DNA of 7,429 bases, taken from positions 1-7,429 of the forward strand of contig CAIWXP010000116.1 of assembly GCA_903916665.1 (NCBI GenBank). The letters are read 5' to 3'. Within the stretch, counting starts at the first letter, position 1. The number at the start of each line of letters is the position of its first letter. The notes under the pieces were generated by a model. It was not told the origin of the DNA, did not search any database, and worked only from the letters and a program-made list of their open reading frames with translations. The stretch comes from Candidatus Iainarchaeum sp. (GTDB taxonomy: Archaea; Iainarchaeota; Iainarchaeia; Iainarchaeales; 0-14-0-20-30-16). Both the position numbers and the translations under genes were made by a program. Shown piece after piece: positions 3 through 5,756 of the stretch.

Positions 3-2789
3 TGGAATGACGGCAATGGTTTTATTCCTGTAGGTTATTTAGCTCCGTGGGGTGCATTTACAGGATCATTTAATGGAAATAATCATACGATAAGTAATTT
101 ATTTATTGATAGAAATAGTGATGAGTTAGGATTATTTGGCTACGTACATAATGCAAACATTTATAATTTAAATTTAGTAAATACAAACATTTCAGTAGGA
201 TCAGATTATAGTTATATTTCTGGATTAGCGGGCTATGTTGAAGATTCTAATATTTATGATGTTAATATAAATGACATAAATATTTTTGGACCCGGGGCAT
301 ATTATTTTGGGGCACTATCCGGATACTTTGAAGACTCTAATGTTAATCATGTAAATGTTAGTAATGCAAATGTTTTTGGAGATAAAGATGTTGCTGGATT
401 TTTAGGATATGCTTATGGTTCTATAATTAATGATGTGAATGTTTCTGGAAATATTAATTCATATTATGGTTATGTTGGTGGATTAATTGGTGAAATGGAT
501 GATTCAAATATTTTGAATTCTCATTCATCTATGGATATTAATACAAATTATCCCGAAAAAAATGATTTTATTTGTGCTTATTGCACAGAGCAATATGTTG
601 GTGGTTTAATAGGTTACGCATCAACAGACGAGTGGGAATATAACTACATTAAAAATTCAAGTTCATCAGGAAATTTAACAACTAATGGATTTATTGTTGG
701 TGGTTTAATAGGTGGTTTGCGGGATACACAAATCTCTCAATCCTATGCAACAGGAGATGTAAATGCAAATTATTTTAATTATCTAATTATTAATGATGAT
801 CAAAATACAAATAATTTGTTGTTTTCGCCAGGTTATACAACACAAAGTGTGCCTATTAATCAAACTGAAGATCATAATGTTAGTGTAAGAATATCGTTTA
901 ATAAACCAGAAGTTGACGGACAATATATTCCTGTATTTGCAGATTTAGAAAAAGTATATTTAACCTGTGATGATCAAAATTATTCTCCTAATTCTGCAAT
1001 ATTAAATGATATGAATGATGTTTTAAATGATGTTTTGGAAGTAGATAATAATGCAGTTACATTATCTAACTATGCAACTAATTATTTAGATTTGAATTTT
1101 AGTTTGGGTGATTGTTCAAGTGATATCAATTTATATTTAACTGCAAATGTTTATGGAAAAGGTTTGCCAATGGAATATTATAGTAATTATATTTTGGGGC
1201 AAGATAAAAATTATATAACTTATTGGACTCCATCAACAGGGCATCCAGACGGAAATACGTATATTACAATGTTAGATGATGATGAAAATTTATATGTATA
1301 TGCGGATATAACTTCTGACAATACTTTAGATATTGGTTCTGGTTGGATTGATTTCACAATTGGTGCAAATAGATTCCATGTTGATGATTCAAATACAGAT
1401 TATGGTAATTGTCAATTTGGAATGACTGATAAAGTAAATTACAAACATGAATATTGTAATTTAACAATTCCAAAAAATGATATAAATAATTTAAATCAAG
1501 ATTTTAATTATAGATTAAGATATTATGGTACTGAAGGTGCTTATGGTGTTGGTGGCTTAATAGGTTATGCAAGTGAAGATACTATTAATGAAACCTATTC
1601 TGCTGGAAATGTAAATAGTAATTTAGATAATGTAGGTGGGCTAATTGGAATATTATTACGTTCGGATATAAATAATACTTATTCTACTGGAAATGTAAAT
1701 GGAAATACCAATGTAGGTGGCCTAATTGGTGGTTTGGAATATAATTATAGTTCAGCAAATTCATATTCTATAGGGTTAGTTTCAGGAAATCAATATGCGG
1801 GTGGTTTAATAGGAATTTTATATTCTAGCTCATCAATTATAAATTCATTTACTACTAGTTCAATTTTAGCAAGTGATTCTTATAGTCACAATATTGGTGT
1901 AGTAATAGGGCAGTTTTCAACCGACGATACAGAATCAGGATTATATTATTATAATTCTGATGATTCATTAAATTGTTACCATAATAATAATTCTAATGAT
2001 TATTCTAATGAGGGCTGTACAAAAGTTAATGATGAAAATTATTTTAAAGATAATAATTCAAATGCCCCTTTGAATAGTTGGGACTTTACACATATTTGGA
2101 AAATAAATGAAAATGGTTATCCAACATTAAGAATGATTTCATGGACGCCTGTTACACCTCCGAATAATCATTCATCATCTGGTGGTGGATCAAACACAAT
2201 AACAGTAAATACTTCTGGAATATTAAGAGGAATTTTACAAGGTCAAATAATTGAATTCACTGTTGATAAAAAAGGACATTATGGTATAAAACATAAATTA
2301 ATTGTTAAAGATATAAACTCAGATTTTAATAGTGTAACATTTGATTTATACTCAACACCAATGAGTTATACCTTATCAATTGGACAAGAAATAAAAAGAG
2401 ATTATGATGGTGATGGAAATTACGATTTAAGTGTAAAATTATTATCAATTGTAAATGGAAAAGCTAGCTTTGAATTAAAAGCAATAAATGATCCTGTAAA
2501 TCCAGTCGTTATTGCAGATAAAAATACAAATAACAATACAAATATAAATGTAGATAATAATTCAAATATAAATAGTAATACAAATGTAAATGATAATACA
2601 AATTCAGTTATTATTGATAATAACGGGGATAACAATGTGATTAACAATACAAATACTAATGTTGAAAATAATTTTAACTATGGGTTTGATTGGGGATCAT
2701 TGGTAGTATTGATAATTATCATTATTGTCCTATTTGGTGTTTGGTATTACTTTATTAGAAAGCCAAAGCATCATTATAGACATTTATGA
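3..2789 (+). CDS. Large cell-surface protein, 5'-truncated by the window edge. It has GLUG-motif (GGLIG) beta-helix-type repeats, an inserted Cys-containing domain, an Asn-rich stalk and a C-terminal TM anchor.
   Basis: The frame of the 435 ORF is open from nt 3 with no stop. My hand translation of 3-434 reads WNDGNGFIPVGYLAPWGAFTGSFNGNNHTISNLFIDRNSDELGLFGYVHNANIYNLNLVNTNISVGSDYSYISGLAGYVEDSNIYDVNIND... There is no in-frame ATG before the GTG at 435, so the track start is an artefact and the real start lies upstream of the window. The protein contains an FxGxFNGNNHTISNL motif and seven exact GGLIG motifs plus degenerate copies (SGLAGY, GALSGY, AGFLGY). The repeat units end in xN(S/T)YxxGxVxG. 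A WDFTHIWKINENGYPTLR module follows. The hydrophobic span LVVLIIIIIVLFGVWYYFI (2700-2756) is followed by the basic tail RKPKHHYRHL and a TGA stop at 2787-2789. Confidence 0.85.
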   Translation, partial: WNDGNGFIPVGYLAPWGAFTGSFNGNNHTISNLFIDRNSDELGLFGYVHNANIYNLNLVNTNISVGSDYSYISGLAGYVEDSNIYDVNINDINIFGPGAYYFGALSGYFEDSNVNHVNVSNANVFGDKDVAGFLGYAYGSIINDVNVSGNINSYYGYVGGLIGEMDDSNILNSHSSMDINTNYPEKNDFICAYCTEQYVGGLIGYASTDEWEYNYIKNSSSSGNLTTNGFIVGGLIGGLRDTQISQSYATGDVNANYFNYLIINDDQNTNNLLFSPGYTTQSVPINQTEDHNVSVRISFNKPEVDGQYIPVFADLEKVYLTCDDQNYSPNSAILNDMNDVLNDVLEVDNNAVTLSNYATNYLDLNFSLGDCSSDINLYLTANVYGKGLPMEYYSNYILGQDKNYITYWTPSTGHPDGNTYITMLDDDENLYVYADITSDNTLDIGSGWIDFTIGANRFHVDDSNTDYGNCQFGMTDKVNYKHEYCNLTIPKNDINNLNQDFNYRLRYYGTEGAYGVGGLIGYASEDTINETYSAGNVNSNLDNVGGLIGILLRSDINNTYSTGNVNGNTNVGGLIGGLEYNYSSANSYSIGLVSGNQYAGGLIGILYSSSSIINSFTTSSILASDSYSHNIGVVIGQFSTDDTESGLYYYNSDDSLNCYHNNNSNDYSNEGCTKVNDENYFKDNNSNAPLNSWDFTHIWKINENGYPTLRMISWTPVTPPNNHSSSGGGSNTITVNTSGILRGILQGQIIEFTVDKKGHYGIKHKLIVKDINSDFNSVTFDLYSTPMSYTLSIGQEIKRDYDGDGNYDLSVKLLSIVNGKASFELKAINDPVNPVVIADKNTNNNTNINVDNNSNINSNTNVNDNTNSVIIDNNGDNNVINNTNTNVENNFNYGFDWGSLVVLIIIIIVLFGVWYYFIRKPKHHYRHL
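2523..2678 (+). repeat. Asn-rich low-complexity stalk with (N-x)n dipeptide periodicity, inside the surface-protein CDS
   Basis: The translation is NTNNNTNINVDNNSNINSNTNVNDNTNSVIIDNNGDNNVINNTNTNVENNFN. At the DNA level it is degenerate AAT-NNN reiteration (aat aca aat aac aat aca aat ata aat gta ...). It sits between the last folded module and the TM anchor. Confidence 0.7.
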
Positions 2790-4466: not shown

Positions 4467-4616
4467 TGCCAAAAGGGGGACTTGAACCCCCGACCTCCAG
4501 ATTTCCCATTTCAAGAAATCTATCTAATCATCAACCTTCTTTCAAAGGTTTCATCACTCACAATTTCAATTTAAACATTATGAGTCTGGCGCTCTAACCA
4601 ACTGAGCTACCTTGGC
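4467..4616 (-). tRNA. tRNA-Met(CAU), elongator-type (tRNA-Ile2 CAU not excluded), with a 76-nt intron at canonical position 37/38; CCA is not encoded
   Basis: The minus strand reads GCCAAGG-TA-GCTC-AGTTGGTTA-GAGC-G-CCAGA-CTCATA[intron]A-TCTGG-AGGTC-GGGGG-TTCAAGT-CCCCC-TTTTGGC-A. The acceptor stem is 7 bp (G1-C72, with two G-U pairs at 6:67 and 7:66). U8, G18G19 and the T-loop TTCAAGT are present. The anticodon CAT is at 4582-4580. Removing 4503-4578 gives a 74-nt cloverleaf. It is not an initiator, because it has G1-C72 and no GGG/CCC in the anticodon stem. The 3' flank is TCAAAA, so there is no genomic CCA. Confidence 0.9.
4503..4578 (-). ncRNA. tRNA intron with box C/D-like architecture: two UGAUGA boxes, D-like UUGA/AUGA boxes, a k-turn, and antisense elements to C34 and U39 of the host pre-tRNA
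   Basis: GUGAUGA lies at 4551-4557 and UGAUGA at 4528-4533 (minus strand). UUGA lies at 4511-4514 and 4542-4545. The hairpin AACCUU/AAGGUU spans 4533-4550. There are 7-9 bp complementarities to both splice-junction regions, with N+5 registers on C34 and U39 (details in findings). No canonical CUGA is present and the terminal C/D pairing is unresolved, hence the moderate confidence. Confidence 0.45.
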
Positions 4617-4620
4617 ACAA

Positions 4621-4680
4621 GCCTTTTTAGAAAAAAGGCACTGTCTGCCAAAAACTAGTGGATTGCATTTTGCAATACAC
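4621..4680 (-). terminator. Cluster of hairpins with T5/T6 tracts between the RtcA-like gene and the tRNA (candidate terminators, possibly alternative structures)
   Basis: On the minus strand, hairpin A is GTGTATTGCA-aaa-TGCAATCCAC (4680-4658; 9 bp plus 1 mismatch), followed by tagTTTTT. Hairpin B is GGCA-gacag-TGCC (4649-4637), followed by TTTTTT (4636-4631). Hairpin C is GCCTTTTT-tct-AAAAAGGC (4639-4621). C shares its GCC with B and ends 4 nt before tRNA position +1. Confidence 0.4.
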
Positions 4681-4717: not shown

Positions 4718-5731
4718 TTATAGATTAACTTCTAAAAGAATATCTTTTTCTCTTTCTTCTTTTTTAGATTTTGTTCCTAACATGGTTTCACAAACATATA
4801 AACAATCATCCAAATAATCATCTTTTTTTGGATAAATTATTTTTGCATTTAAACCAGAATAGGCTAAAAAAGGAATTATAACATTTGCCGCATGAGTATC
4901 CAAAGGAGTATCTCTAGCAACCAAACTAATTACTTTATCTGCCATTTCTTTACCCAATTGACTAGGTTGTTTTTTTGTTGAACAAACATTGGCACCTAAA
5001 ACTGTATTATCATATATCAAAACAATATCTGCACCATAACCTTTATGTTTTTCTCTGTTTTCAACAAATGTACTAATATATTCATTAAGTAAAATATTTT
5101 TTGGAGTTAAAGTATTTTTTATTCCATCAATAATATAATTGTTTACACTTTCACCATGACCATAGGAATGAACGTACATTATTGAATGTTCCAAATCTCC
5201 TTTTTCTAACATTGTAAAAGATTTTAATTTTGTTGATTCTTTTGTAAATAAAATAATTTTGCCAGGTTCTTCACCATAGCCTCTTTTTGTAATTTCTATA
5301 TTTGCGTTAACATTAATCTTTTTTAACAAAGGAATAATTACTTTTTGGAAGTAATCTCCACTTAATTTATTTTCATAGTTTGTTGGGCCCGTTAATGAAA
5401 TTTTTTGGGTTGTTGAATGATATAATAAAAGTAAATAGGGTAACATTACTGATATTAATGCAGGATGTCTAAAGTTTATTTGTGGGGCACTTTTAATTGT
5501 TTTTGGGTCAAATTCTATTTCTGTTGAGCCCTTTTCTATTCCTTTTGATTCTGCACCAGCAATTTGCTCGAATATTTTGACATAGATATAATCTTCATAG
5601 GTTAATCCAGGCTTATCTGCTGCACTTCGAATATTAATTATTTTAATGGGTTCTTTTTTTAGTGTGGAAAAAGTTAATGCTAACCGGAGTGTAAACCCGG
5701 GATGTGTCCTGTTTGCATCTATTATTATCAT
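4718..5731 (-). CDS. RNA 3'-terminal phosphate cyclase (RtcA)-fold protein lacking the catalytic His and other active-site residues; Rcl1-like
   Basis: The protein is collinear with RtcA: IIIDANRTHPGFTLRLALTFSTLKKEPIKIINIRSAADKPGL aligns with the family pattern DG..GEGGGQ.LR.ALSLS...G.P..I..IRA.R..PGL..QH. GSTEIEFDP aligns with GS....F.PG, and LDTHAANVIIPFLAYSG with (D/G)E(H/Y)L.DQL...MALA. I prefer the ATG at 5731 (MIIID...) to the track's GTG at 5740, because a TATA-like box at 5757-5769 would place the TSS near 5737. The stop is TAA at 4718-4720. Confidence 0.8.
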   Translation of the reverse strand: MIIIDANRTHPGFTLRLALTFSTLKKEPIKIINIRSAADKPGLTYEDYIYVKIFEQIAGAESKGIEKGSTEIEFDPKTIKSAPQINFRHPALISVMLPYLLLLYHSTTQKISLTGPTNYENKLSGDYFQKVIIPLLKKINVNANIEITKRGYGEEPGKIILFTKESTKLKSFTMLEKGDLEHSIMYVHSYGHGESVNNYIIDGIKNTLTPKNILLNEYISTFVENREKHKGYGADIVLIYDNTVLGANVCSTKKQPSQLGKEMADKVISLVARDTPLDTHAANVIIPFLAYSGLNAKIIYPKKDDYLDDCLYVCETMLGTKSKKEEREKDILLEVNL

Positions 5732-5756
5732 TTTTATCACACAAAAATTACAATTA

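Follow-up and report, generated by a model that had tools for sequence, protein, structure and literature searches.

What is the function of the intron that interrupts a tRNA(CAU) gene in a 7,429-nucleotide (nt) stretch of DNA from Candidatus Iainarchaeum sp. (contig CAIWXP010000116.1), referred to here in its full length as the window? A previous sequence-only reading of this stretch proposed that the intron is a self-targeting box C/D RNA that guides 2'-O-methylation of both C34 and U39 of its own tRNA, as does the intron of pre-tRNA-Trp in Euryarchaeota. Our analysis suggests that the first half of this idea is sound. The intron is probably a minimal, single-guide (half-mer) box C/D-type methylation guide, located in the precursor of elongator tRNA-Met; comparison with related introns lends strong support to its predicted kink-turn (k-turn) and C34 guide. 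The literal observations of the previous reading, i.e. the gene, its numbering, the motifs and the pairings, were all borne out; what had to be revised is the second guide and the assignment of several boxes.

The gene is found on the minus strand of the window (~28% G+C), where the Rfam tRNA model matches positions 4616..4467 with 56.4 bits (E = 2e-10) and a 76-78-nt insertion after A37. ARAGORN reported no tRNA in the window, because a 76-nt intron defeats this program. The isotype is most likely elongator tRNA-Met: the presence of G1-C72 and of an anticodon stem without GGG/CCC disfavours an initiator, and the homologous gene of Nanoarchaeum equitans has been called elongator Met. Intron bases are numbered such that i_k lies at coordinate 4579-k.

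4467..4616, minus strand: precursor tRNA(CAU), with the 5' exon at 4616..4579, the intron at 4578..4503 and the 3' exon at 4502..4467 (Rfam tRNA model)
4503..4578, minus strand: intron of 76 nt at the canonical 37/38 position (Rfam tRNA model and exon/intron extraction)

A predicted k-turn and a candidate guide for C34 in the tRNA(CAU) intron

The elements that make up the candidate guide module follow one another without interruption from i15 to i54, and its target straddles the 5' splice site.

4577..4585, minus strand: guide target, A31 C32 U33 C34 A35 U36 A37 of the tRNA plus intron bases A1 and U2; C34 (4582) is set opposite the guide base that is fifth upstream of the box
4556..4564, minus strand: guide (antisense) i15-23, AUUGUGAGU, positions 2-10 upstream of the D'-like box, pairing with A31-A37 and i1-i2
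4555, minus strand: G24, unpaired position 1 of the guide (position 1 is mostly mismatched with N30)
4551..4554, minus strand: AUGA, i25-28, a D'-like box forming the k-turn strand that lacks the bulge (box spectrum across 73 introns)
4533..4550, minus strand: hairpin i29-46 (AACCUUU GAAA GAAGGUU), C-stem of the k-turn (folds and relatives)
4525..4532, minus strand: C'-like strand, with bulge G47 A48 U49 followed by G50 A51 U52 U53 A54 (direct reading)

The motifs noted in the sequence-only reading lie where it had placed them, with GUGAUGA at i22-28, UGAUGA at i46-51, UUGA at both i34-37 and i65-68, and AUGA at i25-28. The segment i15-23 can form eight Watson-Crick pairs and one G-U pair with A31-A37 plus A1 and U2, which brings G20, the fifth base upstream of AUGA (N+5), opposite C34. 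In the k-turn, G50.A28 and A51.G27 would be the sheared pairs, followed by a U.U pair between U52 and U26 and by U53 facing A25. The hairpin AACCUU/AAGGUU is indeed predicted to form by RNAfold, its actual stem being 7 base pairs (bp) long and closing a GAAA loop.

To what extent could such an arrangement arise by chance in a single sequence? Among 20,000 dinucleotide-preserving shuffles of the intron, a NUGA box whose upstream bases are paired at 8/8 positions with C34 at N+5 occurred with p = 0.0014, while some position of the anticodon arm or other was 'targeted' 8/8 in 5.6% of shuffles. The two N+5 coincidences on which the dual-guide proposal was built thus fared differently in this control, the one at C34 being beyond chance and the one at U39 (7/8 pairs) not (p = 0.065). 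A composite motif was defined by 7/7 guide pairs, NNGA, a directly adjoining stem of 4 bp or more, and a 3-nt bulge ahead of GA; it is present once in the window, counting both strands, and occurred once among 200 shuffled windows. Taken alone, the single sequence is beyond chance in part only, and the comparative evidence is decisive.

The candidate C34 guide and the k-turn are conserved and covary in DPANN archaea

Homologous introns were gathered by three routes: synteny, a genome scan and a metagenome scan that was blind to intron content. The first route made use of the RtcA-like RNA 3'-phosphate cyclase encoded in the window, for which we found 15 homologues, one of them in a metagenome-assembled genome (MAG) named Candidatus Diapherotrites archaeon CG08, within the DPANN kingdom Nanobdellati. 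An intron-bearing tRNA(CAU) gene lies just downstream of the cyclase gene on every contig that is long enough (L001, L004, L010, L011, L014 and L015); contigs L007, L008 and L009 stop short of the tRNA and are outside the synteny set. These tRNAs were confirmed by Rfam, and their introns are 84-123 nt in length. The set thus consists of seven tRNA(CAU) genes, associated with RtcA homologues that are 43-100% identical and obtained with no selection on intron content. In all seven, UAUGAG(U), antisense to C32-A37, is followed after two bases by AUGA, then by a hairpin, a bulge (GAU or AAU) and GAUUA, while the hairpins are of unrelated sequence and range from 12 to 62 nt. With the addition of L111, the closest relative of the window, which came from the unbiased scan, the guide is conserved in 8/8 members of the clade, seven of them known from synteny.

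The genome scan, a pattern search of one genome per species, gave 59 matches, of which about 30 have genuine tRNA flanks; the rest are bacterial noise lacking such flanks. The genuine matches carry the labels Aenigmatarchaeota, Nanohaloarchaea/Nanoanaerosalina, Micrarchaeota, Undinarchaeota, Nanobdellati, Diapherotrites or an unclassified 'archaeon', with the exception of one labelled Magasanikbacteria, a record that is probably mis-binned. The metagenome scan specified the exons only (GCCAGACTCATA, 50-80 nt, ATCTGGNRGTC) and returned 80 unique introns. The composite motif, with C34 at N+5, was found in 45 of these 80 introns compared to 7 of 4000 shuffled introns, and the register is sharply defined: the partner of C34 was at N+2, +3, +4, +6, +7, +8 and +9 in 0, 0, 2, 0, 1, 0 and 0 introns, respectively. 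The motif is not a mere consequence of having an intron, since unrelated intron families also exist. What the relatives have in common is a module consisting of an antisense to A31-A37 and the first one or two intron bases, an unpaired base, a D'-like AUGA or CUGA, a hairpin, a 3-nt bulge and GAU(U/C).

A total of 73 non-redundant introns from several DPANN phyla was used to look for covariation in the guide. Guide positions 2 to 8 (p2-p8) and the stem were criteria for selection of these introns, so that the free evidence comes only from two-sided changes at N31/p2, from p1 and from p9-p12; the circularity of the set was addressed by the intron-shuffle and register controls. Guide position 2 and tRNA position N31 form U:A in 60 introns and C:G in 13, with no exceptions, while position 1 is mostly mismatched with N30. 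Pairs can also form between p9 and p10 and intron bases i1 and i2, across the 5' splice junction. For guide position 10, a pair with intron base 2 is available in 44/54 cases and one with mature position 39 in 19/54, the pairing being possible in the precursor only in 27 cases and in the mature tRNA only in 2. Because position 10 covaries with intron base 2, the target would be the precursor and not the mature tRNA. In a fixed-register alignment, i2 and p10 form pairs of six types, and complementarity declines at p11-p12, which, together with the mostly unpaired p1, points to a guide duplex of 9-10 bp, like that of archaeal C/D ribonucleoproteins (RNPs). In the same alignment, 90.5% of cells are paired, versus 76.5% after shuffling and 31-46% when the partner is slid, and the covariation score is 0.380 versus 0.127 for the shuffled controls.

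The k-turn is likewise conserved and covarying across the 73 introns in the exact register proposed by the sequence-only reading, with AUGA as the D-type strand, the hairpin as the C-stem, G47-U49 as the bulge, and G50.A28 and A51.G27 as the sheared pairs. The box is AUGA in 43 introns, CUGA in 19 and UUGA in 6; the bulge is GAU in 33 and AAU in 23 (hence RAU in 56); and a U.U pair is possible at 3b.3n in 51/73. The tandem GA/GA was a requirement of the motif scan and is therefore present in every intron scored. The C-stem differs wholly in sequence between relatives and varies from 10 to 62 nt, always abutting the GA on either side, and each of its three closing pairs beside the k-turn shows 5-6 pair types in the fixed-register alignment. 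A k-loop register for the C' box, with a G47.A28 pair, was considered and rejected: position 47 is an A in 23/73 introns and the hairpin stem directly abuts the box. To judge from sequence, these introns follow the grammar of an archaeal box C/D guide: p1 is unpaired, the duplex runs from p2 to p10-11 (about 10 bp), N+5 faces the target, the box is (A/C)UGA, and the k-turn has a sheared G.A tandem, a 3-nt bulge and a U.U pair.

Some further features of these introns were seen in passing. The C-stem hairpins of L001 (~11160-11225) and L010 (~11215-11280) share a conserved 62-nt insertion (GACCGUUGCGUCAGUCUACG.CGCGUACUACACAAGGUAGUACAAU.CAUAA.GCAUUGGUU), which looks like a structured expansion; the cyclases of these two contigs are just 63-76% identical to that of the window. 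Three loci from Aenigmatarchaeota and 'archaeon' MAGs (L016, L021 and L030) have, besides the k-turn intron, a small one of ~15-25 nt that lies immediately ahead of G31 on the 5' side of the anticodon stem, and L017 (1780-1937) appears to carry another insertion, in the T-arm, the tRNA match spanning 158 nt with a main intron of 71 nt. The k-turn guide is absent from two further conserved intron families of tRNA-Met(CAU), 'AUCUG..GGAAACC..GGUUUCC..CUUCCC..' (L077, L080, L088, L089, L099, L103, L108, L109, L139, L154, L168 and L169) and 'AUC..CAGCCAAUAAAUAAGGGUC..' (L078, L079, L091, L093, L115, L123 and L152). Many of the k-turn-less introns open with AUCUG, which repeats the first bases of the 3' exon.

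The guide fold and the splicing fold are mutually exclusive

The minimum free energy structure of the precursor (-52.4 kcal/mol, z = -4.7; RNAfold) contains the i15-23 duplex, the i29-46 hairpin and a 3' hairpin that pairs i57-66 with i72-76 and A38-G42, and the guide conformer still has an energy of -49.6 kcal/mol when the k-turn bases are held single-stranded. A constrained fold comprising the cloverleaf and a canonical bulge-helix-bulge (BHB) splicing motif has an energy of -40.5 kcal/mol, making the guide conformer 9-12 kcal/mol more stable.

4505..4508, minus strand: 3' strand of the BHB central helix, i71-74 UGGG, pairing with C32-A35 (4584..4581)

The BHB has the expected 4-bp helix and two 3-nt bulges, U36 A37|A1 and A75 A76|A38, and the UG(G/A)G that provides its 3' strand is conserved at intron 3' ends. 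Its outer helix, i4-8 paired with i65-69, is weak, and in the constrained fold the 5' bulge is 5 nt in size. The guide and BHB folds cannot form simultaneously, which suggests that methylation would come first and that the RNA would be remodelled before splicing, as in pre-tRNA-Trp.

These data can be accommodated in the following model. The k-turn formed by AUGA (i25-28), the C-stem (i29-46), the 3-nt bulge and GAUU (i47-53) would bind L7Ae, allowing the recruitment of Nop5 and fibrillarin. The nine bases upstream of the D'-like box, past one unpaired base, would form a duplex with A31-A37 plus i1 and i2 of the precursor, and fibrillarin would add a 2'-O-methyl group to C34 (Cm34), which faces the N+5 base. 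As the guide duplex would use intron bases and compete with the anticodon stem and the BHB helix, methylation would have to precede splicing. The intron may act in cis or target a different precursor molecule, perhaps in the form of an excised intron RNP. In the clade of the window, an extra 11-bp hairpin over the 3' splice site would serve to stabilise the non-splicable guide conformer. The sequence anatomy, its conservation and covariation, the fixed N+5 register and the precursor-specific pairing are observed; the binding of the proteins, the methylation and the order of events are what we infer from them.

The alternative that holds up best, which we nevertheless consider unlikely, is that the k-turn functions without methylation, binding L7Ae only, with the antisense stretches acting as a switch in folding or timing that keeps the precursor from being spliced, or as a protection of the anticodon loop, and fibrillarin playing no part. 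L7Ae binds k-turns in several archaeal RNAs that are not of the C/D type, and both the greater stability of the guide conformer over the cloverleaf plus BHB and the presence of just one conserved k-turn would fit such a role. However, a pure switch leaves unexplained why the N+5 register is invariant, why position 1 is unpaired, why the duplex is limited to 9-10 bp and why there is an (A/C)UGA consensus with U.U, all of which are expected if the intron is a methylation guide.

The proposed second guide is a clade-specific hairpin

The sequence-only reading had assigned a second guide, directed at U39, to the 3' part of the intron, with UUGA (i65-68) as its D box.

4512..4522, minus strand: clade-specific 3' antisense i57-67 (UAGAUUUCUUG), the earlier 'U39 guide', forming an 11-bp hairpin with i71-76 and A38-G42 (4508..4498) across the 3' splice site
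4511..4514, minus strand: UUGA, i65-68, the earlier candidate box D; not conserved as a box and replaced in relatives

A tRNA-Trp-like dual guide for C34 and U39 now appears improbable to us. The literal pairing on which it was based is correct: i58-64 (AGAUUUC) is complementary to G74 A75 A76|A38 U39 C40 U41, and, within the slightly longer duplex of i57-64 with the G74-G42 region, A60 (N+5 from UUGA) faces U39. This complementarity is conserved within the clade of the window and even covaries, the C64-G74, U65.G73 and U66.G72 pairs of the window being replaced by U.G, C-G and C-G in L111. It is the box that is not conserved. The counterparts of UUGA are UCAU in L004, UCUA in L001, UUGC in L010, AGAA in L014 and CCAA in L111, and although a UGA is found within one base of the same place in L011 (UUGA) and L015 (CUGA), the register there points to C40 and not U39. 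Moreover, U65, U66 and G67 are base-paired in both folds, with G73, G72 and U71 in the guide conformer and within the i4-8 helix in the splicing conformer. The 3' junction helix reaches at least 9 bp (9-11 bp) only in the window, L111, L010, L004 and L015, and no antisense to position 39 was found in the other DPANN lineages. A U39 arrangement that does not exceed chance in the single sequence (see above), whose box is lost even in L111 and has its bases paired in both folds, is better described as a clade-specific hairpin, and we have abandoned the U39 guide for these reasons.

The dual-guide design of pre-tRNA-Trp also calls for a second k-turn, and none is conserved. No box C is conserved upstream of the guide, where the 5' segment measures just 6-9 nt in several lineages and lacks any GA in L011, nor is any box D conserved in the 3' segment of relatives. 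The candidate D box has no partner box C. A terminal k-turn composed of UUGAAA (i10-15) and UUGA (i65-68) was rejected since neither half is conserved in relatives. The two motifs previously read as boxes C did not hold up either. The first GA of GUGAUGA is dispensable, as L014 has GUAAUGA, and 34/73 introns have a base other than G ahead of AUGA; in the second UGAUGA, an A replaces the first G in 23/73 introns, and this G is dispensable, as L004, L011, L014 and L015 carry AAUGAUUA. Two UGAUGA motifs are present in 5.6% of dinucleotide shuffles. The other layout that had been put forward, with C as GUGAUGA, D' as UUGA (i34-37), C' as UGAUGA and D as UUGA (i65-68), was dropped because the first GA of each 'box C' is unconserved and i34-37 sits within a hairpin that is free to vary in sequence.

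Relation to known guide RNAs

The closest published parallel is the elongator tRNA-Met intron of N. equitans, 66 nt long and reported to be an RNA that is stable, abundant and equipped with elements of the box C/D type (Randau 2012, Genome Biol 13:R63; PMC3491384), for which a box C with a T-to-G change and a consensus box D were described and the supplementary table gives 'no prediction' as to target. The published sequence of this intron (GCAUGGGCUAUGAGCUCUGACCCGAAAGGGGAUGAUCUC...) reads UAUGAG, CU and CUGA, followed by a hairpin (CCC-GAAA-GGG), GAU as the bulge, and GAUC. Like the window, it belongs to DPANN, interrupts tRNA-Met at 37/38 and has the element order antisense, 2 nt, (C/A)UGA, hairpin, GAU-GAU(C/U); it differs by its canonical CUGA, its 3-bp hairpin and an extra GC hairpin, and it lacks the 3' junction hairpin of the window's clade. 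This layout, antisense-NN-(A/C)UGA-hairpin-RAU-GAUY in a 37/38 intron of a CAU tRNA, is shared by the window and 72 other introns. Since it is identical in N. equitans, the same rule predicts C34 of its own precursor as the target there, and neither this self-target nor the register was recognised in the earlier study (PMC3491384). A literature search, in which subscription journals were sparsely covered, brought up only Randau 2012 for an intronic Cm34 guide across DPANN, and no description of its self-target, of a design with a single k-turn or of so wide a distribution.

The euryarchaeal pre-tRNA-Trp, whose own box C/D intron guides Cm34 and Um39 (Clouet d'Orval 2001; Singh 2004), resembles the window in having the guide in a 37/38 intron, a junction-spanning duplex, C34 as a target and mutually exclusive guide and BHB folds. 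The host tRNA is different, however, and pre-tRNA-Trp has both C/D and C'/D' motifs and two guides, whereas the window has one conserved k-turn that closes a real hairpin and one guide, with U39 unsupported as a second target. Cm34 of elongator tRNA-Met itself is guided by separate sRNAs, sR-tMet in Haloferax (as noted in the sequence-only reading) and sR49 in Pyrococcus, and by SNORD97/SCARNA97 in humans; the tRNA-Met guide has been described as 'always exonic', i.e. not intronic, with intron bases joining the pairing (Grosjean 2008). The nucleotide and the tRNA are thus the same as those proposed here and the archaeal trans guides also pair with intron bases of the precursor, but they are separate genes, whereas the guide in the window lies inside the intron of its own target.

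Could the excised intron instead guide modification of another RNA (e.g. rRNA) in trans, through the region past the C'-like box, with the complementarity to the tRNA being secondary? The accumulation of the N. equitans intron as a stable RNA would be in keeping with this, as would a CUGA located ~12-16 nt after the C'-like box in some Nanohaloarchaeal introns; yet the downstream region is unconserved in both length and sequence and is occupied by splicing helices in most lineages, and we give this explanation very little credence. Chance motifs in an AT-rich intron, finally, are refuted as an explanation by the comparative data, for even if two UGAUGA motifs or an 8/8 match to some anticodon-arm position are each obtained in 5.6% of shuffles, chance accounts neither for the frequency of the composite motif in unbiased versus shuffled introns nor for the covariation at N31, i1, i2 and the C-stem.

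Protein machinery and points that weigh against a half-mer guide

Nop5 genes (PF01798) are present on L017 and L092, and an L7Ae gene on L092, both contigs carrying the same type of intron as the window. Nop5 has many homologues in databases; the few with organism names are from Aenigmatarchaeota and none from Diapherotrites. The window contig (7.4 kb) carries no fibrillarin, Nop5 or L7Ae gene, and is too short to judge its own genome on this point. On L092, an archaeal RNase P RNA, the L7Ae gene and a gene for a short Nop-domain protein (235 aa) occur together, the three features occupying between them 643-852 and 6888-7595 on the minus strand and 7740-8252 on the plus strand. The Nop-domain protein may be without the N-terminal fibrillarin-binding domain, the start of its open reading frame (ORF) being uncertain.

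Several points weigh against the proposal of a half-mer methylation guide. Fibrillarin, which occurs in >90% of archaeal taxa surveyed (PMC8481954), was not found in 1.28 Mb of loci by tblastn with an M. jannaschii fibrillarin query, and there is no fibrillarin gene beside Nop5 in L175. The C'-like box departs from RUGAUGA at positions 6-7, which are UU or UC rather than GA, and a standard pair at 4b.4n is possible in only about half of the 73 introns. Rfam C/D families gave no match at the locus by cmscan at E values up to 10, the tRNA match standing alone, and an Rfam scan of eight loci found tRNA and RNase P only. The bipartite C/D plus C'/D' design, which has a second k-turn or k-loop and spacers of ~12 nt, is missing, as there is one conserved k-turn, and two juxtaposed motifs are reportedly needed as a rule for efficient and specific methylation by archaeal C/D RNPs, making the half-mer mechanism an assumption of our model. 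Half-mer box C/D RNAs are said to be present in crystal structures of archaeal RNPs, where two of them can occupy the Nop5 dimer; these have one k-turn and one guide like the window, but are laboratory constructs and not natural RNAs, and a natural, conserved half-mer would be unusual in archaea. Lastly, methylation and protein binding in the organisms that have this intron are predictions from its sequence pattern, and we infer the choice of elongator Met over Ile2(CAU) as the isotype.

The surroundings of the gene

In addition to the tRNA, the window encodes a GLUG-repeat protein, an archaeal-type TyrRS, a GNAT acetyltransferase, the RtcA-like cyclase and an unannotated 341-aa protein. The cyclase gene (4718-5740, minus strand) is ~100-200 nt upstream of the intron-bearing tRNA-Met gene on the same strand, with the TyrRS gene close by. 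The gene order cyclase-tRNA-Met is maintained in the six syntenic contigs, where the cyclases are down to 43-84% identity, and it may be no accident that an enzyme producing 2',3'-cyclic phosphate ends is encoded beside a tRNA that undergoes splicing. A perfect inverted repeat, GCCUUUUU-UCU-AAAAAGGC, at 4621-4639 (minus strand) stops 4 nt short of the tRNA 5' end and could serve as terminator for the cyclase gene, as part of a promoter or as a structured leader; similar A/U-rich palindromes also precede the tRNA in L010, L011 and L015. The GLUG-repeat protein (435-2789, plus strand; 784 aa) is very rich in Asn, has a hydrophobic C-terminal segment and is probably a surface protein, whose ORF may be truncated given that its start is close to the contig end.

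Implications for tRNA-Met maturation in DPANN archaea

The identification of C34 of the precursor as the probable target would provide the intron RNA from tRNA-Met of N. equitans with a concrete candidate target, and the published rule that the archaeal guide for Cm34 of tRNA-Met is always a separate gene would be overturned, the guide being intronic here. A conserved natural guide with a single k-turn would also challenge the need for two juxtaposed motifs in archaeal C/D RNPs. On the practical side, the signature antisense-NN-(A/C)UGA-hairpin-RAU-GA could be used to annotate introns missed by ARAGORN, and intron-bearing tRNA-Met genes of the k-turn kind are probably under-annotated in DPANN MAGs.

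We put forward more tentatively, as a possibility that goes well beyond the window, that across DPANN the elongator tRNA-Met intron is a natural half-mer C/D RNP that methylates its own C34 and couples modification to splicing by a conformational switch. On this view, such an intron could also resemble the ancestor of the trans-acting guides for Cm34 in Euryarchaeota and eukaryotes (sR-tMet, sR49 and SNORD97), or be a degenerate form of them. An intron that is both the guide and a part of the target would offer a reason for the retention of a tRNA intron in strongly reduced genomes.

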